A DNA stretch of 64,000 bases from Candidatus Woesearchaeota archaeon (lineage in GTDB: Archaea > Nanobdellota > Nanobdellia > Woesearchaeales > GW2011-AR15). Below the pieces are notes generated by a model. That model was not told the origin of the DNA. It saw nothing but the letters and a program-made list of their open reading frames with translations, and made no database searches. Below are positions 1 through 26,464 of the stretch, in pieces (position 1 is the first letter of the stretch; the number at the start of each line of letters is the position of its first letter). The stretch lies in assembly GCA_038874655.1 (NCBI GenBank), contig JAVZBY010000001.1, positions 52,292 to 116,291 of the forward strand, given 5' to 3'. A program made the position numbers and the translations under genes.

Positions 1-855
1 GAAAGAGGAGTTGATCCTATGGAATGTGTTGCAATGGGAGCAGCAATCCAGGGTGGTGTTTTAGCAGGTGAAGTAAAAGATGTATTATTATTAGATGTTA
101 CTCCATTAAGTTTAGGTATTGAAACATTAGGTGGCATATTTACAGTTATGATTCCAAGAAATACTACTATACCAACAAAAAAAAGTCAAATATTTAGTAC
201 TGCAACAGACAACCAACCAGCTGTAACCATAAAAGTAGGACAAGGAGAAAGACCTATGTTTGCAGATAACAAATTATTAGGTCAATTTGATTTAGTTGGA
301 ATTCCACCAGCTCCAAGAGGAGTTCCTCAAATAGAAGTAACTTTTGACATAGATGCTAATGGAATTGTTCATGTATCAGCAAAAGATTTAGGAACAGGTA
401 AAGAACAGTCAATTAGGATAACAGCATCAACAAAATTAAGTCAAGAAGAAATTGAAAGGATGAGAAAAGAAGCAGAAATGCATGCAGAAGAAGATAAAAA
501 AAGAAAAGAAAGAGCAGAAACCATAAATGAAGCAGAAACTTTAGTTTTCCAATATGAAAAAACATTAAAAGATATGGCTGACAAAGTAGATAAATCTTTA
601 ATAGAACCTATTCAAAAAGACATTGATGCATTAAAAGAACTATTAAAAGATAAAGAGAAAAATTATGAGGCAATAAAAAAAGCAAAAGATCAACTAACAG
701 AAAAATTCCAAAAAGTTTCAGAAGAATTATACAGAAAAGCAGCAGAATCAAGACAATCAACACATACAAATCAAGATAAAGAAAGCAAAGAAAACCAAAA
801 AGAAAAAGTTGTTGATGCTGAAGTAGTTGATGAAGATAAAGAAGATAAAAATTAA
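1..855 (+). CDS. dnaK: Chaperone DnaK (Hsp70), 5'-truncated by window edge
   Basis: [50 protein letters not shown]; frame open to position 1. Confidence 0.98.
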
Positions 856-14509: not shown

Positions 14510-14788
14510 ATGGCTGATGTTGTTGTTACTTTAAATGTAATGCCTGAATCACCTGATGTTGATTTAGAAAAACTAGAAAAAGAAGTTTTGATTAAAATAA
14601 AAGAATTTTCAGGAATTGATAACCATAAAACAGAAATAAAACCTGTTGCTTTTGGGTTAAAGATGATTTCAATTATGTTTGTTATGCCTGAAAGTTTAGG
14701 TTCTCCGGATAAGTTAGAAGAAGAAATAAAAAAAATTAAGCATGTTTCCAATGTTGAAATTGCTGATGTAAGAAGAGCTATTGGTTAA
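14510..14788 (+). CDS. ef1b: Translation elongation factor aEF-1beta
   Basis: VMPESPDVDLEKL, PVAFGLK; GGAGAGG SD. Confidence 0.95.
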   Translation: MADVVVTLNVMPESPDVDLEKLEKEVLIKIKEFSGIDNHKTEIKPVAFGLKMISIMFVMPESLGSPDKLEEEIKKIKHVSNVEIADVRRAIG

Positions 14789-15273
14789 AGTAATCTTACA
14801 ACTGCATCATAATCTATTAAAAAAACTTTTTTTCCTATATCTTCTTTTTTTAATTCTAATATTGGCTCTGTAAATGCTAAGTTTGACACTATAGGGTCAC
14901 ATAATATTGCATCAGGTCTGATATAATAATCAAATTGTGAAAGTATCTCAAAAGAATCGTTAACTAATGGATAAAAAGGTTGAATTAAAAAAGGAATTCC
15001 TTGAATTGTGCCATTATCTATAATAGGTGCATCAAAATAAGTTATTTTTTTAGGTGGTAATTGTGAAATTTTTAAAACATTTCCATCTGATAATAAAACT
15101 GCTAAGCTATGTCTGCCATGATCTAAAATTTTTTGTGGATTAAATTCATCAAATTCAGAAGGAATTTTTTTACCTTTTACAAAGGGATTTACATCTTCTA
15201 CATACAAATAATAAAATCTAATTTTATATTCTAGAATATATTCCTCAAGAAGCTCTTGTAATCTAGATTGCAT
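14785..15273 (-). CDS. Hypothetical protein with minimal protein-kinase-like motifs
   Basis: LDHGRHSLAV, VLKI, CDPIVSN, FLIDYD in kinase order; start uncertain. Confidence 0.5.
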   Translation of the reverse strand: MQSRLQELLEEYILEYKIRFYYLYVEDVNPFVKGKKIPSEFDEFNPQKILDHGRHSLAVLLSDGNVLKISQLPPKKITYFDAPIIDNGTIQGIPFLIQPFYPLVNDSFEILSQFDYYIRPDAILCDPIVSNLAFTEPILELKKEDIGKKVFLIDYDAVVRLL

Positions 15274-16361
15274 CTTACACCCCAATCTAAAAAATGTGTC
15301 CTAGTTATTTCTTTGTTTATAATTGAACCTATTTTTGGAATTTGTATTTTTTTTATTTTAGCTATATAATGTAAATCATAAAAACCAACTGCATTTATTT
15401 TTGATTCTTGATTTATAATACTTAATAAATTTATAAGTTCATTGTTATGATTATATTTTTGAATGGCATTTTTATACATTTTTCCAACTAAATCAGAATC
15501 CCATAAAGAACCAATCCATATAGGCCCAGCATAATCCCAATCTTTTATACATTTTTGATTAACTATTTTTATATTTTTGATTTCTAAGATGTCATCTACT
15601 ATTAATCTTTGACTTGTTTTCCAGTTATATAATAAAAATTTATGATTTTTTAATATTTCGTCTGCTTTTTGCCTTCCTTTTTCACATTTAAAAAAAACTC
15701 TATAATAATGGTCTTTATAATAAGAAAATATTGGTGTTAATGCTTTTTCATATTGGCTTGCAATTAATTGCACTTTTCTAATTAAAATTCTTATTCCTGT
15801 TTCATGCATAAACTCGTTTTTTAATGGTTTAGAGAAATATTTTCTTAAACATGCATTTTCAGAATTTCCTGATAAAGCTGCTGTATCTGTTGCGGTTATT
15901 GCTAAAATTCCATTTCTGGATAATCTTAAAATAGATGCTTCTAAAAAAGGATTTGGACTACCAAAAGGATCTACATCAATATAATCAAAACCAGAACTTT
16001 CCAATAAAAATTGAACAGCATCTTTTTCATAAACAAAAATGTTAGAATTATCTAATAAACCATTCAATTTTAAATTTTCAAGAATATTGTTTTTTGTTTT
16101 ATAATCATTAATGGATATATTATTTATTTTTCCTTTATCTAATTCTAATAAAAATCTTATGCTTCTTATTCCTGAACCTGCTAAAATATCTGCAATTTGC
16201 ATTTCTCTATTTGAGAGGGAATTTAACAATAAAATTGAAATATCTCTATTTAATTTCATAACAGGATTATAGAAAACATCTAATTTTTTTGAAATCTTTC
16301 CTTCTGAAATTTTTATTTTTGCTAATCCTTCTTGTATAATTGTTTTATTTTTATCTAACAT
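15231..16361 (-). CDS. trm1: tRNA (guanine-26-N2)-dimethyltransferase Trm1
   Basis: VFYNPVMKLNRD, LAGSGIRSIR, IDVDPFGSP, TATDTA, GPIW; true start likely ATG 16361 (MLDKNK). Confidence 0.93.
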   Translation of the reverse strand: MLDKNKTIIQEGLAKIKISEGKISKKLDVFYNPVMKLNRDISILLLNSLSNREMQIADILAGSGIRSIRFLLELDKGKINNISINDYKTKNNILENLKLNGLLDNSNIFVYEKDAVQFLLESSGFDYIDVDPFGSPNPFLEASILRLSRNGILAITATDTAALSGNSENACLRKYFSKPLKNEFMHETGIRILIRKVQLIASQYEKALTPIFSYYKDHYYRVFFKCEKGRQKADEILKNHKFLLYNWKTSQRLIVDDILEIKNIKIVNQKCIKDWDYAGPIWIGSLWDSDLVGKMYKNAIQKYNHNNELINLLSIINQESKINAVGFYDLHYIAKIKKIQIPKIGSIINKEITRTHFLDWGVRCNLDYKSFLRNIF

Positions 16362-16396
16362 TATAATAAAAGAAAAAGTACTTATTAAAAAAGTAT

Positions 16397-16495
16397 TTGC
16401 CCTTCTTTGCCTAGGAACAGATGGACGCCAAACATTTGTTGGACACAGTCCTTTGTGATAGTTAGAGCCCCTTCTCCTAGATTGCAAAAGGGCAA
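16397..16495. ncRNA. Candidate structured non-coding RNA, family unknown
   Basis: GC-rich 99-nt island with nested stems TTGCCCTT/AAGGGCAA, TTGC/GCAA, CTAGGA/TCCTAG. Confidence 0.55.
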
Positions 16496-16560: not shown

Positions 16561-17286
16561 ATGACAAATCAGAGTAAGGAAAGGTTTAAAATATATAAAA
16601 ATGTTTTTGATGAATTTACATTAAATACTTTATTTAAATTAAGTTCTCAAGGTCATTTTGATGAGTTAATTCAACCAATAAGAATTGGTAAAGAATCTAA
16701 TGTTTTTTTAGCAGATACAAAAGAAGGTGATTATGTTATTGTTAAGATATATAGATTAGCTTCATGTAATTTCAACAAAATGTATTATTATATTAAATCT
16801 GATCCTAGATTCATGGATGTGAAAAACAGACGAAGAATTGTTATTTTTAAATGGGTGCAAAGAGAATACAGAAATTTATTAACAGCTAGAGAAGTTATTA
16901 ATGTGCCTATGCCAATTGCTTTTTCTAATAATGTTATTGTTATGGAATCAATTGGAAAAAATAGTCCTGCGCCACAATTAAAAGATCAATATCCAAAAAA
17001 AAAAGATTATTTTTGCAAAAAAGTTATTGATTTTGTTGAAAAATTAGCTAATTGTGGATTAGTTCATGGCGATCTGTCAGAATTCAATATTTTAAATTTA
17101 AATGATGAGCCTTATTTTATAGATTTTTCACAAGCAACTAGTCTAGATGATCCAAATGCTTTTGAGTATTTAAAGAGGGATTTGGAAAATTTAAAAAGAT
17201 TTTTTGAAAAATTAAATTATAAATTTGATTCAATTAAAATTTTTGAAAAAATAAAAGAAAATCATAATAAAAAAATAATAAGATAA
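16561..17286 (+). CDS. rio1: RIO1-family Ser/Thr kinase
   Basis: IGKESNVF, VKIYR, WVQREYRNL, VHGDLSEFNIL, IDFSQA. Confidence 0.95.
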   Translation: MTNQSKERFKIYKNVFDEFTLNTLFKLSSQGHFDELIQPIRIGKESNVFLADTKEGDYVIVKIYRLASCNFNKMYYYIKSDPRFMDVKNRRRIVIFKWVQREYRNLLTAREVINVPMPIAFSNNVIVMESIGKNSPAPQLKDQYPKKKDYFCKKVIDFVEKLANCGLVHGDLSEFNILNLNDEPYFIDFSQATSLDDPNAFEYLKRDLENLKRFFEKLNYKFDSIKIFEKIKENHNKKIIR

Positions 17287-17608: not shown

Positions 17609-18004
17609 ATGTTTAAAATAATTTTTTCTTTTTCTGGACATGAAAATCTTATTGGCAATCATAAAAACACATTTGAATTTACAAAAGAAAAAGAGTTAAC
17701 AAAAAAAGGAGATTGTATTATAGGGGTTAATTCTAATTTTGACCATACAAAATTAAAAGAATTATGTAAAAAATTTAAAAAAGCAAAAATCATTATTCAA
17801 TCTGATAAATTTAAAGATGATGTTGTTTTTTATTTAAATAAAAATTTTGATGATGAAAAAGAAATTGTTATAAGAAAATCAAATTTTATTTCAAAGAGAA
17901 CTCTGGGAATTTTAGCTGAAAAATCTGCTTTTGAATTAAATAGAGATTTAATAAAGAGTATAAAAAATAAAGGAGGTTTTTGTGAAATAATTCCAATAGC
18001 TTAA
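17609..18004 (+). CDS. DUF371 family protein
   Basis: GHENL.GNHKNTFEFTKE.ELTKKGDCIIGV, IVIRKSNF. Confidence 0.9.
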   Translation: MFKIIFSFSGHENLIGNHKNTFEFTKEKELTKKGDCIIGVNSNFDHTKLKELCKKFKKAKIIIQSDKFKDDVVFYLNKNFDDEKEIVIRKSNFISKRTLGILAEKSAFELNRDLIKSIKNKGGFCEIIPIA

Positions 18005-18019
18005 TTATAAAAGAGTAAA

Positions 18020-18487
18020 ATGAAAAAAGCAATGAATAATAAAGAAGTTAAAGAATTTCTGGAATTAGTAAAAAATGAATATAATTTAGAATTGCATAAA
18101 AAAGAGAGATATGAAATTTTTGACAATAGTAATGCGAATTATAAAATTATTTTAATTAATAATGTGGCTAAATTTTTTTATTATGAAAATAGACTAATTC
18201 CTAGCTTAAAATTAATTTTAGAAAATAATTTTTTGAAAAAAATAATTATTGATATGGGTGCTGTTAAATTTATTGCTTCAGGTGCAGATGTAATGAGGCC
18301 TGGAATTGTTGATATTGAAGAAGGAATTGAAAAGAATTGTGTTGTTTCTATTATTGATGTTAATAATAAAAAACCAATTGCAGTAGGAATTACTTTGTAT
18401 AGTGGAGAGGAAATAAGGAATATGAATTCTGGAAAGGTAATTAAAAATATACATTATGTAGGTGATAAGATTTGGAATTTCCTTTAG
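18020..18487 (+). CDS. PUA-domain RNA-binding protein (DUF1947/MCT-1-like)
   Basis: DMGAVKFIASGADVMRPGI, IHYVGDKIW. Confidence 0.92.
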   Translation: MKKAMNNKEVKEFLELVKNEYNLELHKKERYEIFDNSNANYKIILINNVAKFFYYENRLIPSLKLILENNFLKKIIIDMGAVKFIASGADVMRPGIVDIEEGIEKNCVVSIIDVNNKKPIAVGITLYSGEEIRNMNSGKVIKNIHYVGDKIWNFL

Positions 18488-18557
18488 TAAATTTTATTAC
18501 TAAATAGTAGTTTAAAAACCTAAAATTTATATAATAGTTCTTTTTAGTTTTTGTAAA

Positions 18558-20012
18558 ATGACTTTAAATGATGTTATAATTTCAGTTAATCAAGAGACAG
18601 TTATAGAATGGATTACTGAAATAGAAGAAAGATATCTAAGTGTAAAAAGAAAAGTTAATGAAATTAATTTAGACAATTGGCCAAAACCTTTATCTAGAGA
18701 ACCAAGCTATCTAGTTAATGGACAAAAAAAAACTTTAGAAGAATTAACAGAAGAGGATTTCAATCCTATTATTAATTTTTTAAGTGGAATATTAAATTTA
18801 TCTACTTTTGAAAATGAAGAAAAAAATATAATTGCTAGGTCAATGGCTATTTTAAATACTGTTTTTTGGAATTTTGAAAAAAATGAAGCAAAAACAAGAA
18901 AATATGAAAGTGTATATAGTATAACGCATTTATTATCTGTGGCTTATATGTTTGAAAATCCTGATTTAGAAACTTTATTAGTTGCTTTAAATCATGATAC
19001 TATTGAAGATTCATATAGACATAAAGTTTTGAAAAGATATTATTTAGGAGAAAATATTTCAGATGAAGATGCTGAATTAGTTGGTTTAAGTGAAGAAGAA
19101 TTAAAAATAAAAGATAAAAGGTTAAAAAGAGGCATTTATAATAAACATTTAAAAGAATTGATTATTAATACTTTATCTTTAATTGGTTTAGAGCATGAAA
19201 AAAGTGAAAGAGTAAGGATTTATTTAGATGCATTAACACATAGAATATATGAAAGTTATGAAAATTATATAAAAAGATTAGTTAGAACAGCAACAAGATT
19301 AGGTGTTGAAGGATATAAGTTAGTTCTAATTAAAGGATATGATAGATTAGATAATTCTCATTTTAATCCGCATTATAATATGCCTGAAATATTTGAAAAA
19401 GAAGGACTTAAAATTTTAAGAGATGCTGTAAAAGATGTTTTTGTTTTAGAGGCTATCTCTGATTATATAGCAAATGAAAAGAGCTTAGATGATAAACAAA
19501 TTGAAGAATTATTAAAAGTAAAAGTTGCTTTGGGTTCATTATTAAATAGAAATATGAACCAATTAATGATTTACATAAGAGAAAATTATAGAAATAGAAG
19601 ATTAACGAGAGAGGGTGAGGAAAAGAATTTAGAAGATTGGTTTAATGAATGCGAAAAAAAATTAAATGAATATTATGAACTAGGTGGATTTAATCAAAGA
19701 GATATCAACCCTAGTAGTAAGAATCCTAACGAAATATTTAAATATAATGGAAGCATAACTTCACTTTCTTTATTTATTGAAGATAAAGGCTCAAATCTTT
19801 TTAGAAGCTTAAGCTATGATTTTGATTTATTAAAACTATACAAATTTTGTGCTGTTGCAAAAGCAATTGGTTGTTTAAATGCTGGATATAATCCATTTAT
19901 TAATGGAAGATTAATTACTAATATAGATGAAAATGATATTTATGGATTAAATAGTTGGGGTAACTATGATTCAAAATTATTAAGATTTCAAATAAGTTGT
20001 ATTGTTATTTAA
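18558..20012 (+). CDS. RelA/SpoT-type HD hydrolase (SAH/Mesh1-like) with large extensions
   Basis: RKYESVYSITHLLSVA, ALNHDTIED, LDALTH, YENYIKRL, LIKGYDRLDN. Confidence 0.75.
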   Translation: MTLNDVIISVNQETVIEWITEIEERYLSVKRKVNEINLDNWPKPLSREPSYLVNGQKKTLEELTEEDFNPIINFLSGILNLSTFENEEKNIIARSMAILNTVFWNFEKNEAKTRKYESVYSITHLLSVAYMFENPDLETLLVALNHDTIEDSYRHKVLKRYYLGENISDEDAELVGLSEEELKIKDKRLKRGIYNKHLKELIINTLSLIGLEHEKSERVRIYLDALTHRIYESYENYIKRLVRTATRLGVEGYKLVLIKGYDRLDNSHFNPHYNMPEIFEKEGLKILRDAVKDVFVLEAISDYIANEKSLDDKQIEELLKVKVALGSLLNRNMNQLMIYIRENYRNRRLTREGEEKNLEDWFNECEKKLNEYYELGGFNQRDINPSSKNPNEIFKYNGSITSLSLFIEDKGSNLFRSLSYDFDLLKLYKFCAVAKAIGCLNAGYNPFINGRLITNIDENDIYGLNSWGNYDSKLLRFQISCIVI

Positions 20013-20017
20013 ATAAA

Positions 20018-21409
20018 ATGTCAATAGAAGATATTATCCAAAACTTAATTAAGAGATATGATAAAACAAGAGTAGTTGAAACTCCAGAAGGGTTAAAAAA
20101 ACTTCATCCTGGAGATTGTGATTATGAAAGAGCAAGACCAAGAGAACCTGATGAAATGCCATTAATGAAATTAACAAGAAAACTTTTTTTTCCTAATGGT
20201 AATTATTCTGAACCTGATTTAAATGAAGAAAAAAAAAAAGCATTTATTCAATGGACTAGAAAAAGAAAAGAAAAGGCATCTGCTTTCTTATATATATTAA
20301 GACAATATCTAGGTTATAGATCTATAAACCTAGAATCTGAACCTATTACAACAGAATTAGATTTTTTAAATTTTTTAGCTAATAGATTAACTAAAGATAA
20401 CCTACCTAATAAAAAAGTAATAATTACTGCTGAGGATTATATTACAAAAAACAGTTCTAAAGATTTATTAAAGGAATGGCAAAGGTCTAGTAAAGGAAGT
20501 AAAACATCATATACTCATTTTGAAGGAATAAGAAGAGAAGCAGAAAATGTTCCTTATTTAATGCAGGTTTTTTACTCTCCAAAAATGCCACAAGATAATG
20601 CACCTTTTATGATTTTTACAAGGGTTAAACATAGTGATAGTGCAAATGAAAAATTAGCACAAAGATGGGCTGAAGAACTAGATTTATTAGATAGATTAAA
20701 ATTATTTTTTGAAGGTAAAGAAAAAGTGAGTGGTTATAAAGATTCTAAAGAATTAGCAGATGATTTTAAAAAAAAAAAAACAGAAAATCCTGCATATATA
20801 AGATATGTTAGATCAAAAGGAGAAGATCCTAATAACAAATCAAGATTAGATGAATTAAGAGAAGGTTTTATTTATGAAATAGAGGACTTGTTTGGCTTAA
20901 CAATTGTTTTATCTCAGAGATATGATCAAACTTTTGTAGATAATTTAATTAAAAATTATTTTGGTAATGATTCATTATTTGTTTTTGAAAAAGATTCTTT
21001 AGATTTACATGTTAATGATCCTAATAAACCAGATGAAGCACAATTTAGAGTTAAGATTAACAGACAAAAATTAGTTGAATTAGTAGGAGAAAATTATGCA
21101 GAACAAATTTATGTTCCAGATAGTTTTGAAATTCAAGTTATTAGTGCTTCGGATTTAATTATTAAGCAATTCTCTCCTTTTTTTGGAGAAAGAGCTTACA
21201 AAGAAAGAATGAAAAAAAAAAGAACTAAAGGAAATGCTTATAATTATTATCAAAGAATATTAACTTTTTTAAGAGATATTTCTCCTGGAGAATCTATTGG
21301 AAAAGAACAAGAGAGACATGTTCAACAAATTAGAACTAATTTAAGCAGAATTCCACAACAAACTGGATATGAGGGATTTAGAAAACTATTAGAAAATTTA
21401 TATAATTAA
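20018..21409 (+). CDS. Divergent RelA/SpoT-type synthetase (SAS-like) domain protein
   Basis: RVKHSDSANEK (RxKxxxSxxxK), EDLFGLTIV, FEIQV; ATG 20018 lies 5 nt after the upstream stop. Confidence 0.7.
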   Translation: MSIEDIIQNLIKRYDKTRVVETPEGLKKLHPGDCDYERARPREPDEMPLMKLTRKLFFPNGNYSEPDLNEEKKKAFIQWTRKRKEKASAFLYILRQYLGYRSINLESEPITTELDFLNFLANRLTKDNLPNKKVIITAEDYITKNSSKDLLKEWQRSSKGSKTSYTHFEGIRREAENVPYLMQVFYSPKMPQDNAPFMIFTRVKHSDSANEKLAQRWAEELDLLDRLKLFFEGKEKVSGYKDSKELADDFKKKKTENPAYIRYVRSKGEDPNNKSRLDELREGFIYEIEDLFGLTIVLSQRYDQTFVDNLIKNYFGNDSLFVFEKDSLDLHVNDPNKPDEAQFRVKINRQKLVELVGENYAEQIYVPDSFEIQVISASDLIIKQFSPFFGERAYKERMKKKRTKGNAYNYYQRILTFLRDISPGESIGKEQERHVQQIRTNLSRIPQQTGYEGFRKLLENLYN

Positions 21410-21428: not shown

Positions 21429-21881
21429 TTAAATTCTTCTTTCTTTCGGCACATAGTTAAACAATTTTTTATTAATTATTTTACCACAGCCAATGAAATT
21501 ATTATTGTTTTTTATTAAATAAAAACTATTCTTATAGTCTTGATTTAAATCAATATCCAACCCTTTAAGCCATTGTTCTGCTAATTCATTATTTAATTCT
21601 AAGATGTTTTTTTTTGCACTCTTTCCAATTATTTGAGAACCTTCAATACTCAATCTTAATTCATTATTATAAATTTCACCTAAATACAAGCCTAAAGAAT
21701 TAATTCTTAATTCCTTAATATCTATTTTTGAAAAGTCATTTGATATAATGAATATTTTATTTTTAGGATTAATTAAAAAGATATATTGATCTAAATCTGA
21801 AAGATTTGAATCAAATTGCTCTTTTATTTTATTTAATAATTCTTTTTTTTCTTTTGAGTTTAAGATTCTTAGATTTTGCAT
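21429..21881 (-). CDS. NIP7/RsmF-C-terminal PUA-like ribosome biogenesis protein
   Basis: GLYLGEI, RLSIEGSQIIG, WLKG.DI, IGCGK, NYVPKERR. Confidence 0.8.
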   Translation of the reverse strand: MQNLRILNSKEKKELLNKIKEQFDSNLSDLDQYIFLINPKNKIFIISNDFSKIDIKELRINSLGLYLGEIYNNELRLSIEGSQIIGKSAKKNILELNNELAEQWLKGLDIDLNQDYKNSFYLIKNNNNFIGCGKIINKKLFNYVPKERRI

Positions 21882-21933: not shown

Positions 21934-22860
21934 ATGTCTTTTTCACATTTAAATCCTTTAGATTTTAATTATTTAGATTATTATTCTTATTTAGAGAGAA
22001 ATAATATTCAATTTAAAGAGAGAGTTATAAAAAGTTTAGAAGAAGAATTAGGAGAAATATGTGAAGGAATGTGTATTGGTTGTGTAGGTAGTGATGCGAG
22101 AAATGAAAATTGGGGTTCAAAAATAGAATTGCTTTTTATAAATTTATGTGATGATGAATTGTCATTTGAGTTAATATTTAATTACATACTTAACTCAAAA
22201 ATAAAAGAATATTTGGCTGATGCAATAGAAGTAAAAAATAGAACAACAAATGATTTATTTAATTCTAGATTATTAATAAGAGGAAAAAAAGAAAGTGTTA
22301 TTTGGTCACCATATAGAACAATTGATTCTTTGTTTTTGTTTGGAGATTTTTCTGCATTAGAATTTATAAAAACTAGATTTTTAGAGTATGGATTATCCAA
22401 TAAAGAATTAATAGAAAGAATGAAAAAAAGAAGAAATTCACATAAAAAAATAAGTGAAACTGGGGAACAAAGATTTAAAGGAGAAAAATTAGAACATTAT
22501 AATATAAATGAAGGCTTTTGCATTTATGACCTTGATTCTCATTTATGGTCTTTTAAACAGGGGCCTTTGAGATATGTTCAATATGCTTTATCTTATAGAA
22601 TAATATCTTCCAAATTAAAAGATTTATTATATGAGCCAAATACTAAAAAAAGAATAGAATTTTTAAATTCTATTAGAATAATTAATAAAGATTATAAAGA
22701 TAGTTTAATTGATACTTATTTATTTTTTTTACATCAATATCATATATCGCAATATGAATTTTATGTTAATCAAAGAAAAAGAATAATGTTTAATCCTAAA
22801 TTAAGAAGAGAAATAGAAGAAAGATTAAATCAACTTAACAATTATATCACTAATATTTAA
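21934..22860 (+). CDS. Putative nucleotidyltransferase (GlnD/DUF294-like NT + helical substrate domain)
   Basis: CVGSDARNE..SKIELL (GS motif); SFKQGPLRYVQ resembles the DxK.G.LR motif. Confidence 0.55.
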   Translation: MSFSHLNPLDFNYLDYYSYLERNNIQFKERVIKSLEEELGEICEGMCIGCVGSDARNENWGSKIELLFINLCDDELSFELIFNYILNSKIKEYLADAIEVKNRTTNDLFNSRLLIRGKKESVIWSPYRTIDSLFLFGDFSALEFIKTRFLEYGLSNKELIERMKKRRNSHKKISETGEQRFKGEKLEHYNINEGFCIYDLDSHLWSFKQGPLRYVQYALSYRIISSKLKDLLYEPNTKKRIEFLNSIRIINKDYKDSLIDTYLFFLHQYHISQYEFYVNQRKRIMFNPKLRREIEERLNQLNNYITNI

Positions 22861-22877: not shown

Positions 22878-24641
22878 CTAAATCCCCCAGACTGGATTTT
22901 TTTCTCTCATTATTTCTGCTATTGTTTTTAGAACTTCTATTTCTCCTTGCGATAAATATTTAGATAATTTTTTCAATTGTTTAAAGTCATCTTCTGGAAT
23001 ATAACTATATAGAATATCGCCTTCATTTATTTGCCTGCCTATTGTAACATGTTCTAAAGACATTGCAACTTGTTTTCCTTTAGTAATGCTCTGTAAATGC
23101 TCTTTTTCATGCTGTATATCTTTTATTGTTGTTATAGGAATTCCATTTTTCATTAATTGCGTGCCTGTTTTTATTTTTCCTTCTAATATATCAACTCCGA
23201 CTATTGCAGGATTACTTTGTCTAAAAACATAGTTTGGCATTATTTGCAATTTACATGGTCTAATTAAATTATCTAATTCTTTTGCTTCTAATAATTTTGT
23301 CTGTGTTTCTTTCCATTGCTCATATTCTTCTAATATCTTATAGATAATGTTGCTTGTAATTATTTTTACTTTTTCTGTGCTAGAAACATCAAAATCTCTT
23401 TCAACATTAAAACCTAAAATTACTGATTCAAATGGATTTTTTTCATAATTTGCCTCTGCATCAATAATGTCTTTTTTTGTAATTTTACCAATAGATGCTT
23501 TTCTTACAGGAATATTTTTTTCTTTTAATAAAAACATTAATGCTTCTAATGAACCAAGTGTGTCTGCTTTTATTATTAATCCATGTTCATCTGTTTTTAT
23601 CATTACTTCTTGAACTTCTTTTTGTATATCTTTTATTATTTTTTCTTTTTCTGAATCATCTTTATAACTTTGTAATGGCATTCCTGCTATAACTTCATCT
23701 AAATCTGGAGCACTTATTTTAACGCCTGTAGCTGCTATTACAGAATCAACACTTTTAAATTGTGTCTTCTTATCTCTCATCTCTTTTAATGGAACAGGAC
23801 AAAGTAATGCTTTTATTCTTGTTTCTATTGGTTTTTCAATACTACCAATTATTATTTTATCATTTTTTTTTAATATACCATCATATAATATAACATCAAT
23901 TGTTTTTCCTAATCCCTGTGTTTCTTTTACTTCTAAAACAACTGCCTTTGCATTTCCTTGATTTAATTTTAAGTTTTTTTCTAAAAATTTTTGACTTAAT
24001 CCAATTAAGACCATTAATAATTCAGGGATTCCATCACCTGTTAATGCAGAAATAGGGATAATTGCTATTTGTTTTGTATAATCTTCAACTCTATCAAATC
24101 TCTCTGAGTTTAACCCCATTTCTGAAAGTTTTCCAACTATTTCATAAATTTTTGTTTCTAATTTTTCAATAACATAAGGATCTTGGTTGTTAAGATTTTT
24201 TATTAAATTTTTATCTAATTGCCTATATCCTGGAATTAAATCAATTTTATTTGCTGCAATTACAAAAGGTGTTTTAAAACTCTTTAGAATTTCAATACTT
24301 TCTATTGTTTGTGGCATTAAACCTTCATTTATATCAATAACTAGGATTGCAATATCTGCTATTGAGCCACCTCTTTTTCTTAATGTTGTAAAAGCAGCAT
24401 GACCTGGAGTATCAATAAATAATAAGCCTGGAATATTAAATTTAATTTTTTCATTTAATAAGGAACCACATATCTTTTTGATGGTATCTAAAGGAATTAT
24501 GGATGCTCCAATTGCTTGTGTGATTCCACCTGCTTCACTTGTTTGGATAGCTGTTCCTCTGATTTTATCTAATAATTTTGTTTTTCCATGATCTACATGT
24601 CCTAATGTAGAAATTACAATCTGTCTTAATGGACATTCCAT
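22878..24641 (-). CDS. infB: Translation initiation factor aIF5B (IF-2)
   Basis: GHVDHGKT, EAGGITQ, DTPGH, NKID, KADTLGSLEAL. Confidence 0.98.
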   Translation of the reverse strand: MECPLRQIVISTLGHVDHGKTKLLDKIRGTAIQTSEAGGITQAIGASIIPLDTIKKICGSLLNEKIKFNIPGLLFIDTPGHAAFTTLRKRGGSIADIAILVIDINEGLMPQTIESIEILKSFKTPFVIAANKIDLIPGYRQLDKNLIKNLNNQDPYVIEKLETKIYEIVGKLSEMGLNSERFDRVEDYTKQIAIIPISALTGDGIPELLMVLIGLSQKFLEKNLKLNQGNAKAVVLEVKETQGLGKTIDVILYDGILKKNDKIIIGSIEKPIETRIKALLCPVPLKEMRDKKTQFKSVDSVIAATGVKISAPDLDEVIAGMPLQSYKDDSEKEKIIKDIQKEVQEVMIKTDEHGLIIKADTLGSLEALMFLLKEKNIPVRKASIGKITKKDIIDAEANYEKNPFESVILGFNVERDFDVSSTEKVKIITSNIIYKILEEYEQWKETQTKLLEAKELDNLIRPCKLQIMPNYVFRQSNPAIVGVDILEGKIKTGTQLMKNGIPITTIKDIQHEKEHLQSITKGKQVAMSLEHVTIGRQINEGDILYSYIPEDDFKQLKKLSKYLSQGEIEVLKTIAEIMREKNPVWGI

Positions 24642-24756: not shown

Positions 24757-25236
24757 ATGGCAATAATAGGATTTCATTTTACAAAAATGAGTGTAGAAAG
24801 AAAAAAACAACCTAGCGGAAAAATAAATGTAAAAAATAATGTTATTTTAACTGATATTAAAGAAGCTAATGTTATCAGCAATGTTAAGCAAAAAGCAATT
24901 GAATTTAAGTTTGCATATAATACTATTTATGAACCAGAGATAGCTTCTCTTTCATTAGAAGGTGCATTAGTTTTTGTCGGAAATGATGAATTAGTTAATA
25001 AAGCATTGGAAACATGGAATAAAGAAAAAAAATTAGTTGAAGAAATAATCCCTGAAGTTTATAATTATTTGTTAGAAAAATGCAGTATTGAAGCATTGAT
25101 TTTAGCAAAAGAAATGAATTTGCCGCCTCATGTGCCATTGCCTAAAGTTAGTTCAGAAAAACAAAGTGAAGAAGTAAAAGAAGATAGCGAAAATAAAGAA
25201 AAAAAAGAAGATAAAGAAACTAAAAAGAAGAAATAA
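24757..25236 (+). CDS. Hypothetical archaeal protein (possible SecB-like fold)
   Basis: AGGTGAT SD; beta-rich N half followed by helix and LPPHVPLP. Confidence 0.7.
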   Translation: MAIIGFHFTKMSVERKKQPSGKINVKNNVILTDIKEANVISNVKQKAIEFKFAYNTIYEPEIASLSLEGALVFVGNDELVNKALETWNKEKKLVEEIIPEVYNYLLEKCSIEALILAKEMNLPPHVPLPKVSSEKQSEEVKEDSENKEKKEDKETKKKK

Positions 25237-26464
25237 ATTTTAAAAAAGGGATTATTTTTATTTTTTTATTATTAATTTTTTCTTCTGATTCTTGATCAAA
25301 AGTTATTATTAAAGATTGATTTAAATTAAATTTTTCCATTGCTTCTAATAAGCCATTAAATTCTCTTTTTTTATTTGTTTCTGTTATTCCAAAGGTTACT
25401 TGTATTGCCTCTTTTATTAAATTTGATTCTTTAATTAAAAAATCAACCTCGTTTTTTTCTGAAAAATAATAAAATTCTTTGCTTCTTCTTTTTAATTCAA
25501 TGGCAATTAAATTTTCTAATAGCTTTCCTTTATCTTCATTAAATAACATTAAATTAGAAAAACCATTGTCAATCAAATAAATTTTTTTTGGATTAAAAAT
25601 TCGCTTTTTTAAAGATATTGAATATTTTTCTGAACTAATTATAAAAAAAGATTCAGAAAGCTCATATAAAAATTTAGATATTGTTTTTTTGCTTATGCTT
25701 ATTGAATTTGATTTTAAAAAATTTGTAAATTTGCTTATTGAAAAATATTTACTAAAATTAGATAATAAATAATTCATAAGAATCAATAAATTTTCTGGTT
25801 GTTCTATTTTATATCTTTCTGATAAATCTTTATAAAAAATTGTTTCATAATAGCTTTTTAAAAGGTCTTTTTTTTCTTGTTCTTTTTCTTTTTTTATGAC
25901 TTCAGGAAAGCCACCAAATTTTAAGTATTCATTTATTAAATTATTTAATATGCCTTTTTTTAAGTAAATTAAATCTTTAGTTAAAGTTACATTTTTTAAT
26001 TTTAAGAATTCATTAAATGAAAAAGGCAAAATTATTTTTGAAATATATCTGCCTCTTAATTCTGTTGCAATCTCCTTAGAAAGCAGTTTAGATGATGAGC
26101 CAGAGATAATTATTTTAAAACCATTATTATGTAATGTTCTAATAATTTTCTGCCAATTTTTTAAGGATTGAATTTCATCTAGAAAAAGAAATTTAGGATT
26201 ATTATTAAAAAGCTCTTGATATGCTTCTAATATTAAATCAAAGTTATTTAAATTTATTAACCTATAGTCTTCAAAATCTAAAAATAAAACTTGATTAAAA
26301 TTTAATTTTTGTATCATCTCAAACATACAAAAGGTTTTTCCTGCTCTTCTAGGACCTATTAAGGCTGTAATATCTGTTTCACTAAAATCTATATTTCTAT
26401 TAACTAAGGAAACTTTTGCTCTTTCTAAATTCTCTAAAATAAGTTTCTTATAAACTTCTTTCAT
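25220..26464 (-). CDS. AAA+ ATPase (AAA_14) with DUF4143 domain
   Basis: GPRRAGKT, FLDEIQ, SGSSS, LRGR, GGFPE, KIYLIDNG, EVDF. Confidence 0.92.
   Translation of the reverse strand: MKEVYKKLILENLERAKVSLVNRNIDFSETDITALIGPRRAGKTFCMFEMIQKLNFNQVLFLDFEDYRLINLNNFDLILEAYQELFNNNPKFLFLDEIQSLKNWQKIIRTLHNNGFKIIISGSSSKLLSKEIATELRGRYISKIILPFSFNEFLKLKNVTLTKDLIYLKKGILNNLINEYLKFGGFPEVIKKEKEQEKKDLLKSYYETIFYKDLSERYKIEQPENLLILMNYLLSNFSKYFSISKFTNFLKSNSISISKKTISKFLYELSESFFIISSEKYSISLKKRIFNPKKIYLIDNGFSNLMLFNEDKGKLLENLIAIELKRRSKEFYYFSEKNEVDFLIKESNLIKEAIQVTFGITETNKKREFNGLLEAMEKFNLNQSLIITFDQESEEKINNKKIKIIPFLKFISSF

Follow-up and report, generated by a model that had tools for sequence, protein, structure and literature searches.

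A putative, highly diverged RelA/SpoT-like hydrolase and synthetase gene pair in a variable chromosomal slot of a DPANN-type archaeon

Organization of the gene pair

In this study, a 64,000-nucleotide stretch from a Candidatus Woesearchaeota archaeon (assembly GCA_038874655.1, contig JAVZBY010000001.1, positions 52,292 to 116,291), referred to as the window, was analyzed with respect to two adjacent forward-strand genes, gene 1 and gene 2. The predicted products of these genes resemble the hydrolase and the synthetase of the RelA/SpoT homologues (RSH), the central enzymes of stringent control in bacteria. The kind of system is a known one, namely an RSH hydrolase with an RSH synthetase, arranged like the toxic small alarmone synthetases (toxSAS) and their small alarmone hydrolases (SAH). 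The toxSAS enzymes belong to a class of toxins discovered only recently, which either make (pp)pApp or add pyrophosphate to tRNA. The new points are the archaeal (DPANN) two-gene form, the doubled size of both proteins, their position below every curated threshold, a changed acceptor site and the location of the pair in a variable slot of the chromosome. To our knowledge, the biology of RSH and toxSAS enzymes has so far been bacterial or phage-borne.

Both genes are intact open reading frames (ORFs), and their coordinates are collected in Table 1. Gene 1 starts with ATG and encodes 484 amino acids (aa). For gene 2, the ORF list gave 19997-21409 (+), a frame of 470 aa with a TTG start, and this TTG at 19997 is an alternative start. 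In the raw sequence, the stop codon of gene 1 (TAA, 20010-20012) is followed by ATAAA and then by an ATG at 20018. Because this ATG lies 5 nt past the gene 1 stop and the closest homologue of gene 2, P0002, begins at the equivalent methionine, gene 2 is best taken as the 463-aa frame at 20018-21409. An earlier sequence-only reading of this DNA had proposed a split RSH operon with a gap of 5 nt between the genes, and the raw sequence agrees with that gap.

A TATA-box-like element, TTTATATA, was read 24 nt upstream of the gene 1 ATG. This element may be an archaeal promoter, in which case the pair would have its own promoter, both genes would be co-transcribed and the transcript would be leaderless or carry a short leader; words like TTTATATA are common by chance at about 23% G+C, and as promoter evidence the element is weak. 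The G+C content of the pair (0.234-0.238) was the same as that of the rest of the window. Among sequencing runs, four DNA runs contained the stretch in full or in part, one of these possibly being its source, and no RNA run containing it was listed. Judged by sequence, the host is a DPANN-type archaeon, as had been proposed, because the homologues come from sources named Woesearchaeota or Nanoarchaeota and the flanking genes are archaeal translation genes.

Gene 1 and the RSH hydrolase domain

The translation of gene 1 carries the RSH hydrolase motifs in the order that the sequence-only reading had noticed, namely R114-K-Y-E-S-V-Y-S-I-T-H124-L-L-S-V-A, H146-D-T-I-E-D151 and I258-K-G-Y-D-R-L-D-N266. 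The set H...HDxxED...KxxDRLxN is complete (H124; H146-D147-x-x-E150-D151; K259-x-x-D262-R-L-x-N266), and we take its HDxxED and KxxDRLxN residues to be the metal-binding and catalytic set of RSH hydrolases. The motifs were kept across the eight-row family alignment, in which H146, D147, E150, D151, K259 and N266 were present in 8/8 rows and D262 in seven of the eight.

No Pfam family matched gene 1 at E <= 1, and PF13328 (HD_4), when searched over the whole genome, matched only the canonical long RSH described below. Among the NCBIfam models, only SpoT was returned, with a weak E value of 0.034, and the PHROGs search returned phrog_990, a metal-dependent phosphohydrolase, at E 9e-6. The single-sequence search of the PDB yielded a chance match to YjgA (E 4.3) and nothing else, and a word-index homology search with the gene 1 alignment recovered two already-known members only.

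Profiles were built from five (A1), six (A4) and eight (A6) family members. When A4 was compared by hhalign with an alignment of nine long RSHs, a match of 94.9% was obtained (E 4.2e-8) over 121 columns that included HDxxED and KLADRLHN, and with A6 the match rose to 97.0% (E 8.2e-11). Moreover, A6 gave 20 matches to PDB sequences at E <= 1, of which 19 were RSH hydrolase-domain proteins and the last was an RNA helicase fragment (E 0.3). The best of these was Staphylococcus aureus Rel (7oiw_A, E 9.1e-9), and the others included Mycobacterium tuberculosis Rel, RelA, SpoT, Drosophila Mesh1 (3nqw, E 1e-5), human HDDC3 (3nr1, E 1.5e-3) and the (p)ppApp hydrolase 7smg (E 1.4e-3).

Within the order, A6 matched 36 of 376 genomes at E <= 1e-5, and most of the matches listed were ORFs of about 640-700 aa, aligned over the HD region of the profile. 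A1 matched 23 of 401 genomes at E <= 0.01. Its weak-match loci were scanned with Pfam in 17 of 19 cases, L026 and L027 being left out for internal stops; 15 of those scanned, including L021 of genome G518, carried HD_4, and 8 were full long RSHs with HD_4, RelA_SpoT and TGS. One member of the gene 1 family, encoded in the corresponding slot of genome G051, scored 26.2 bits against HD_4, for which the cut-off is 27.2.

On this sequence evidence, gene 1 very probably encodes an RSH-derived, divergent member of the RSH hydrolase superfamily in which the catalytic set has been kept. Like MESH1 and the SAH enzymes, it carries the same set of HD motifs, and its profile matches Mesh1, HDDC3 and 7smg. 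From its sequence, gene 1 is nevertheless not a typical SAH, because about 50 residues are inserted, relative to the long RSHs, inside the HD domain between HDxxED and KxxDRLxN, and because it has large extra regions of about 100 N-terminal and 200 C-terminal residues. Parts of these regions are common to the G051 and G169 proteins introduced below, which share the C-terminal one, and the full length of 484 aa compares with chains of 149-204 residues for MESH1 and SAH.

A stand-alone paralogue of gene 1 was found on contig C4 of the same genome. This protein has 434 aa, is 38% identical over residues 21-303 and is encoded between L7Ae and aIF2-gamma, with no synthetase-like gene adjoining. Short relatives of gene 1 (305-318 aa) with the motifs HDWIED and IKLIDKLHN were found in genomes G041 and G552, directly downstream of a gene for a beta-CASP/metallo-beta-lactamase RNase and again with no synthetase-like neighbour.

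Predicted structure and sequence motifs of gene 2

The AlphaFold2 model of gene 2, computed from 11 sequences, had a mean predicted local distance difference test (pLDDT) score of 87.2, a predicted template-modelling (TM) score of 0.87 and no segment below 50. In the Foldseek search of the PDB, the top rows were all RSH synthetases, namely RelP (6ex0_A, E 0.017, prob. 0.90), RelQ, RelSeq (24io_A, prob. 0.96) and CapRel. When the list from Foldseek was realigned with VIA-align, ranks 1-25 were all RSH, with 5ded_G the best (Z 9.0, 3.6 A, 147/190 residues).

A second structural search, independent of Foldseek, was carried out with VIA-align against 48,161 PDB representatives. The first eight ranks were filled by RelQ (5dec_A, Z 8.6, 3.6 A, 148/188 residues), RelP (6ewz_A, Z 8.3, 155/202 residues), SAS2 of Bacillus subtilis (6fgk_A, Z 8.0), Rel (8acu_B, Z 7.2), CapRel (7ztb_A, Z 6.8), an exported small alarmone synthetase (SAS; 8vx3_A, Z 6.2), RelA (5l3p_z, Z 6.1) and a further Rel (6yxa_A, Z 6.0). 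The first non-RSH chain was TENT5B at rank 9 (6jyj_A, Z 5.7). Only three chains reached Z >= 8, all of them small alarmone synthetases, and RSH proteins made up 10 of the 13 chains at Z >= 5.

The translation of gene 2 contains the three synthetase motifs that had been claimed for it: R202-V-K-H-S-D-S-A-N-E-K212, which has the form RxKxxxSxxxK, presumably an RSH-type motif; D290-L-F-G293; and E371-I-Q373. In the family alignment, K204, S208 and K212 were present in 9/9 rows and R202 in eight of the nine, and D290, E371, Q373 and Y394 were invariant in all ten rows that cover them. We take RxKxxxSxxxK, the D of DxxGxR and ExQ to be the ATP-phosphate and Mg motifs of the synthetases. In addition, E371 is separated from Y394-K395 by 23 residues, as against 22 (E389 to Y411-K412) in the long RSH of the same genome. 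The collinear pattern RxKxxxSxxx[KR] .. Dxx[GA]x[RT] .. E[IVL]Q .. Y[KR], drawn up post hoc and thus a check of specificity, not an independent test, matched 2 of the 1,410 stop-to-stop frames of at least 100 aa in the genome, gene 2 and the canonical long RSH, and no frame in any of 20 residue shuffles. Compared with the classical synthetases, about 65 residues are inserted in gene 2 after the first motif and before the second, and extra helices are present at both ends (about 70 N-terminal and 60 C-terminal residues).

A number of results speak against the kinship of gene 2 with RSH synthetases or against an RSH-like activity. No Foldseek match to the PDB was obtained at E <= 1e-3, the best being 0.017 with TM scores of 0.15/0.32, and models without a clear Foldseek match commonly reach a best Z of 7-8, a figure that may take in true relatives. 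No match to Pfam (E <= 1), NCBIfam, PADLOC or PHROG models was found for gene 2. The family profile A3 found no RSH among PDB sequences, and in the hhalign comparison with the long RSHs it gave a non-significant 0.9% (E 0.062), or 3.8% (E 0.011) with the core alone. Furthermore, no canonical RSH was among the matches of a gene 2 profile in 1.84 billion representative proteins. Several classical residues are also altered: T295 stands for the R of DxxGxR, EIQVIS (I375-S376) stands for EIQIRT, and NGYxSxH is not kept, the equivalent stretch being S327-L-D-L-H...K337-P-D-E-A-Q-F. Judged from the sequence, these changes may mean that gene 2 has a different chemistry or none. The residues of NGY(Q/R)SxH and the R of DxxGxR presumably form the guanine-nucleotide acceptor motif.

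The A3 alignment with the long RSHs was nevertheless in register over three motifs, pairing EDLFGLTIV with yDLIAvRII, S-x-D-x-H..KP with FKDYI..PK and EIQ..YK with EVQ..YK. The fold conclusion rests on the purity of the top structural ranks, the coverage of about 78% of the SAS chains, the near-invariant motifs and the motif spacing, and not on Z alone. According to the model, gene 2 has the RSH synthetase (RelA_SpoT nucleotidyltransferase) fold, and the probability that it is RSH-derived is high. The single-sequence PDB match of gene 2 to a fragment of anthrax protective antigen (E 0.036) was dismissed as chance.

The profile search proposed by the sequence-only reading, with PF04607 and PF13328, reached neither protein at E <= 1. 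Over the whole genome at this threshold, PF04607 matched only the long RSH on contig C2, and it matched none of five scanned relatives. The hydrolase and synthetase identities put forward in that reading were instead recovered through the comparison of family profiles with RSH proteins for gene 1 and through the model fold and motifs for gene 2.

Homologues of gene 2 are few. A word-index search of 5.8 billion proteins found four family members including the query, and a five-sequence profile searched against all 1.84 billion representatives found 11. The six family proteins with a source name were all from DPANN archaea and were all annotated as hypothetical protein. Features from the ESM Atlas, which serve as a lead only, placed gene 2 near a cluster with 15% RelA_SpoT members (score 0.91, 183 shared features); with residues 190-405, 19 of the 30 named-cluster matches were in the RelA_SpoT set. 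Across both searches, RelA_SpoT was carried by 12-15% of the members of the clusters concerned.

Pairing of the genes and the variable slot

Gene 1 and gene 2 are closely spaced in tandem, and comparable pairs are found in other DPANN genomes. P0006, which is 69% identical to gene 1, and P0002, which is 84% identical to gene 2, lie on adjacent locus tags of an NCBI Woesearchaeota metagenome-assembled genome. Genome G081, from another genus of the same family, has an HD-like gene (409 aa) and, 28 nt from it, a gene 2-like gene (496 aa); the NIP7-like and aIF5B genes come next, just as they do in the window. The same arrangement, preceded by Rio1-DUF371-PUA, was found at locus L036, the one related locus among genome contigs with the A2 query, which possibly belongs to the genome of G081 or a near relative and was not counted as independent. 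The gene 2 query matched 2/401 genomes in a sample of the phylum, and the gene 2 family profile matched 3/401 in a sample of the order, one of them marginally at E 0.009. Among metagenome contigs, no related locus was found with the A2 or P0007 queries.

In 8/8 examined genomes of the family, the PUA and NIP7-like genes are near neighbours, and the content between them varies. Orthologues of both lie beside the slot in six other family genomes tested; the PUA orthologue was also present in L036 and the NIP7-like one in L005 and L036. In G000, the genome of the window, and in G081, the slot holds an HD-like gene and a synthetase-like gene. G169, a candidate for a further pair, has a 569-aa HD-like protein and a 709-aa protein with weak, in-register matches to the synthetase motifs (E 0.04 and 0.045), and G051 has an HD-like protein of 608 aa only. 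The slot of G099 holds a 575-aa protein without assignment, and that of G036 a homologue of the 308-aa ORF of the window. In G193, a PIN_4 gene and an RNA ligase gene are found. In G246, the slot contains genes for a 284-aa protein, an 827-aa class I aminoacyl-tRNA synthetase-like protein and a methyltransferase-like protein; the last two labels were given by eye without a scan, the synthetase-like one from HMGH and KMSKS. Altogether, the HD-like and synthetase-like pair occurs at the same chromosomal position in 3/8 genomes of the family, which represent three genera.

The sequence-only reading had described the pair as inserted among genes of translation and ribosome biogenesis. The neighbours are indeed of this kind, and the word inserted is better replaced by a variable slot, present in 8/8 family genomes. 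A recent insertion was rejected, because the G+C content matches the surroundings and both slot and pair are syntenic in another genus. The slot between PUA and NIP7 appears to be a hotspot of cargo directed at RNA and translation.

Outside the family, two further genomes have an HD-like gene followed by a second gene. In G555, a 531-aa HD-like protein is followed by a 404-aa protein, which hhalign aligned with the gene 2 family over 114 collinear columns (E 0.011); the best match of this protein to the long RSHs (E 0.015) fell outside the synthetase motifs. In G351, a 504-aa HD-like protein is followed by a 956-aa protein, for which hhalign against the long RSHs gave E 0.036 over NGYxxxH..E.Q..AAHxxYK. 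The 575-aa protein of G099 was left without an assignment: a single hhalign value of E 0.025 spoke for a synthetase-like protein, whereas comparison with the gene 2 family (E 0.41) and with the G169 protein showed no likeness. Neither it nor the 709-aa protein of G169 had a PDB sequence match at E <= 10.

The genes that flank the pair in the window and in L036 have identities of 75% for aIF5B, 65% for Rio1, 55% for the NIP7-like gene, 46% for PUA and 40% for DUF371. Gene 2 is 31% identical, and gene 1 had no BLASTP match (E > 0.3). Since the flanks are 40-75% identical, the pair evolves far faster than its neighbours.

The 308-aa ORF of the window, which lies beyond the NIP7-like gene, contains a conserved GSDAR-x-ENW motif, and its homologue in G036 has 344 aa (30% identity, E 2e-44). 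The G036 homologue lies inside the slot, where the genome of the window has the RSH-like pair, and the ORF may be part of the same variable cargo.

Canonical long RSH in the same genome

Contig C2 of the same genome encodes a canonical long RSH of 704 aa, the sole ORF matched by PF04607 and PF13328. This protein has HD_4, RelA_SpoT and TGS/ACT-like regions with the motifs LHDIVEET, IKLADRLSNMRT, GRAKYFYSIYRKM and EVQIRT, and eight further long RSHs were found in other genomes of the Woesearchaeales. A passage of PMC8407392 gives RelA/SpoT as present in 41.7% of Woesearchaeota and attributes it to transfer from bacteria. In a part of the earlier paper of Atkinson et al. 2011 (PMC3153485), the lack of long RSHs is listed as common to Planctomycetes-Verrucomicrobia-Chlamydiae (PVC) bacteria, archaea and eukaryotes. 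The premise of the sequence-only reading that RSH genes are rare in archaea is out of date for DPANN, because this genome has a canonical long RSH, its relatives have eight more, and the partial source cited above gives the figure of 41.7%. A DPANN archaeon thus carries an ordinary long RSH together with a separate, highly diverged hydrolase and synthetase pair.

Discussion

In the mechanism proposed here, gene 1 and gene 2 would form a co-transcribed, highly diverged two-gene RSH module. Gene 2 would be a pyrophosphokinase of the RelA_SpoT fold that holds ATP with R202, K204 and K212 and Mg with D290 and E371, and that puts pyrophosphate from ATP on the 3'-OH of an acceptor. The group would be removed again by gene 1, acting as a SpoT/MESH1-type, metal-dependent HD pyrophosphohydrolase. 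It is likely that the two act as an opposing kinase and hydrolase pair. The acceptor, judged from the sequence, is probably not GDP or GTP, because NGYxSxH is not kept, and could be an adenine nucleotide or the 3' end of RNA or tRNA, as in the toxSAS enzymes FaRel and FaRel2/CapRel. The changed acceptor motif and T295 lower the odds that (p)ppGpp is the product, and they have no bearing on the fold. Growth arrest or defence would be the function of the synthetase, which the hydrolase encoded upstream would restrain enzymatically. That the proteins are active enzymes, that they oppose each other on a single product, that the acceptor is of the kind named and that the role is toxin-like are inferences.

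Regarding this role, a growth-arrest or conflict module resembling toxSAS-SAH pairs is put at about an even chance. It is favored over a main stringent-response system because the canonical long RSH already covers that function. The fast divergence of the pair, its patchy distribution and the cargo-hotspot character of its slot, with PIN and RNA ligase genes in one genome, argue for the same role, as do two reports on bacterial systems. In Cellulomonas marina, the SAH antitoxin ATfaRel is encoded immediately upstream of the toxSAS FaRel, according to a portion of Jimmy et al. (10.1101/575399), and a portion of Kurata et al. (10.1101/2021.04.30.441581) states that SAH enzymes reverse the pyrophosphorylation of tRNA 3'-CCA by toxSAS enzymes.

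The archaeal pair shares with ATfaRel and FaRel the bicistronic form with the hydrolase gene upstream, the combination of an RSH-type HD protein with an RSH-fold synthetase, the coexistence with a housekeeping long RSH and the patchy distribution. Unlike the bacterial pairs, it is found in a DPANN host, has proteins of about 470-480 aa each, as against SAS chains of about 185-205 residues in the PDB lists, falls below the Pfam thresholds with both proteins and has a changed acceptor motif. Furthermore, its slot keeps one place on the chromosome, outside any prophage-like region, and the structural match of gene 2 to the FaRel chain 8pu1_B reached only Z 4.2.

Among the other known systems, gene 2 is matched best in structure by RelQ (SAS1) and RelP (SAS2) of Firmicutes, and RxKxxxSxxxK, the Mg-binding D, ExQ and YK are shared with gene 2 in collinear order. 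The identity is 15-16% over the aligned residues, and gene 2 differs from these enzymes in the absence of NGYxSxH, the T for R in DxxGxR, the insertion of about 65 residues and the extra ends. The long RSHs (Rel/SpoT, including the 704-aa copy of this genome) have the same order of HD and synthetase parts, a homologous HD domain (hhalign 97%) and a synthetase fold matched at Z 7.2-5.7. In contrast to them, the archaeal pair is split into two genes, has no TGS or ACT domain detected by Pfam, carries unrelated extra regions in each half and has diverged much further than the canonical long RSHs, which are 41-57% identical to one another. CapRel gave the longest structural alignment to gene 2 (176-182 residues, model positions 42..405, Z 6.8-6.9). 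With CapRel and FaRel2, which are tRNA 3'-CCA pyrophosphokinases, gene 2 shares the RSH fold, and the acceptor of those enzymes, in the partial sources on them, is not that of alarmone synthesis and the reaction is reversible by SAH. CapRel is a fused, single-gene toxin-antitoxin, whereas the archaeal unit has two genes, and no phage-defence context was found at the archaeal locus with PADLOC and phage tblastn.

The conflict role must also be weighed against several observations. No defence model was matched by the eight proteins scanned with PADLOC, tblastn of gene 2 against a phage collection gave no match, and no mobile-element genes were present among the Pfam-scanned neighbours of the pair. 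The pair keeps one chromosomal position across three genera, its base composition is that of the surroundings, and each protein is about 2.4 times the typical size of an SAS or SAH. In addition, the partners in G169, G555, G351 and G099 are only weakly synthetase-like by sequence, each call coming from single-comparison E values of 0.01-0.05.

Some of these observations would fit a second housekeeping nucleotide-messenger system that tunes translation or ribosome biogenesis, like a long RSH split in two and equipped with new sensor domains. Gene 2 would then make (p)ppApp, ppGpp or a related nucleotide, and gene 1 would degrade it. The gene order mirrors the domain order of long RSHs, the shared position in three genera suggests long vertical inheritance, and signatures of mobile elements and defence are absent from the Pfam neighbours and the PADLOC scan. 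The neighbours (aEF-1beta, Trm1, Rio1, PUA, NIP7-like and aIF5B genes) belong to translation and ribosome biogenesis, L7Ae and aIF2-gamma flank the stand-alone paralogue of gene 1, and the roughly 250 extra residues in each protein are possibly regulatory. However, a genome of 1.26 Mb is dense with translation genes, which makes the neighbourhood weak evidence, and a canonical long RSH with TGS and ACT domains is already present. Moreover, the pair is confined to 3/8 family genomes, the slot of the others holding unrelated cargo, its divergence relative to the flanks is extreme and unusual for a core regulator, and the guanine-nucleotide acceptor motif is not kept. We regard such a messenger system as possible but rather doubtful.

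It is less probable still that gene 2 is a nucleotidyltransferase fold with another chemistry, such as the RNA 3'-end nucleotidylation of MenT or TENT enzymes, whose likeness to RSH is ancestral only, with gene 1 as an HD phosphohydrolase acting on a different substrate. The T295 and I375-S376 replacements and the missing NGYxSxH would agree with this, generic nucleotidyltransferases do appear in the structural lists (TENT5B at Z 5.7, MenT1 at Z 5.3, Pol mu at about 5), and no sequence method places gene 2 in PF04607. Yet RSH proteins fill ranks 1-8 (Z 8.6-6.0) above TENT5B with coverage of about 78% of the SAS chains, RxKxxxSxxxK is near-invariant, and the partner gene is specifically of the RSH-hydrolase type (19 of 20 PDB matches) and not a generic HD protein. 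It is very unlikely that both proteins are inactive remnants of a split RSH, either retained for binding or as structural components, or in the course of being lost: the extreme divergence without Pfam detection and the patchy distribution, with apparent loss in most relatives, would suit it, but both ORFs and their homologues are intact, conservation in both families is highest at the residues with which active RSH enzymes bind metal and ATP, and the gene 2 model is confident and compact.

Returning to the toxSAS-SAH-like module, a broader proposal can be put forward tentatively and is in our view somewhat unlikely as a whole. The Woesearchaeales might possess a class of two-gene RSH modules that evolves fast and has so far gone unrecognized, with the gene for a large HD hydrolase ahead of that for a large synthetase-fold enzyme in a variable hotspot beside translation genes. 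These modules would be the first toxSAS-like system of archaea, in which the synthetase pyrophosphorylates the 3' end of RNA or tRNA or an adenine nucleotide and the hydrolase is the antidote. If this were true, such modules could shut down the translation of their own cell during virus attack, or the translation of the host cell of an episymbiont. An active pair would mean that archaea, too, have growth control or conflict systems based on RSH enzymes, that a synthetase with probably new acceptor specificity is at hand, and that RSH chemistry on RNA ends can be tested tractably outside bacteria.

In the literature on toxSAS, ppGpp and the stringent response in archaea, Woesearchaeota and DPANN, covered partly as titles and the beginnings of abstracts, no archaeal pair surfaced, and on ppGpp in Woesearchaeota and the stringent response in DPANN the one pertinent statement was the figure of PMC8407392 given above; related archaeal sequences may be listed in the RSH tables of Jimmy et al. 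or in Fig. S34 of that paper. The present results also indicate that surveys of RSH distribution with Pfam-level profiles undercount divergent members such as those of this pair, whose copies in the databases are all labelled hypothetical.

Neighbouring genes and coordinates

The features of the pair, its neighbours in the window and the related loci elsewhere are given in Table 1.

Table 1. Coordinates of the gene pair, its predicted domains and motifs, the neighbouring genes and related loci
Feature	Sequence	Position	Strand	Basis or remark
Gene 1, predicted divergent RSH-type HD protein with extra N- and C-terminal regions	window	18558-20012	+	profiles
Gene 1, HD-domain core, residues 100-270	window	18855-19367	+	range aligned to long-RSH HD domain
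Gene 1, H146-D-T-I-E-D151	window	18993-19010	+	within HD core
Gene 1, K259-G-Y-D-R-L-D-N266	window	19332-19355	+	within HD core
Gene 2, predicted RSH-synthetase fold (RelA_SpoT-like nucleotidyltransferase) with extra N- and C-terminal helices	window	20018-21409	+	AlphaFold2 model
Gene 2, synthetase-like fold, residues 70-401	window	20225-21220	+	model range aligning to RelQ and RelP
Gene 2, R202..K212	window	20621-20653	+	within synthetase-like fold
Gene 2, D290..T295	window	20885-20902	+	within synthetase-like fold
Gene 2, E371..K395	window	21128-21202	+	within synthetase-like fold
TATA-box-like TTTATATA, possible promoter	window	18526-18533	+	read from sequence
aEF-1beta	window	14510-14788		Pfam
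Trm1	window	15231-16487	-	Pfam
RIO1 kinase (Rio1)	window	16561-17286		Pfam
DUF371 gene, directly upstream of PUA gene	window	17609-18004	+	Pfam; same Rio1-DUF371-PUA order in L036
DUF1947 and PUA gene, upstream slot border	window	18020-18487	+	Pfam
NIP7-like pre-PUA/PUA gene, downstream slot border	window	21429-21881	-	Pfam; convergent with gene 2
308-aa ORF	window	21934-22860	+	ORF list; no family in Pfam scan
aIF5B	window	22878-24641	-	Pfam
Lys/Glu-rich ORF, 159 aa	window	24757-25236		no family
AAA_14 and DUF4143 ATPase, 414 aa	window	25220-26464	-	Pfam
Canonical long RSH, 704 aa	contig C2, L032	121-2235	-	PF04607 and PF13328
Stand-alone gene 1 paralogue, 434 aa	contig C4, L003	1096-2400	-	same genome
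Short gene 1 relative, G041	L002	1300-2217	-	
Short gene 1 relative, G552	L008	211-1167	-	
PIN_4 gene, slot of G193	L039	502-1194	+	
RNA ligase gene, slot of G193	L039	1200-1931	-	
Three genes, slot of G246	L042	551-4762		last two labels by eye

Further along the window, the gene for the AAA_14 and DUF4143 ATPase overlaps the end of the Lys/Glu-rich ORF, which is without a family.

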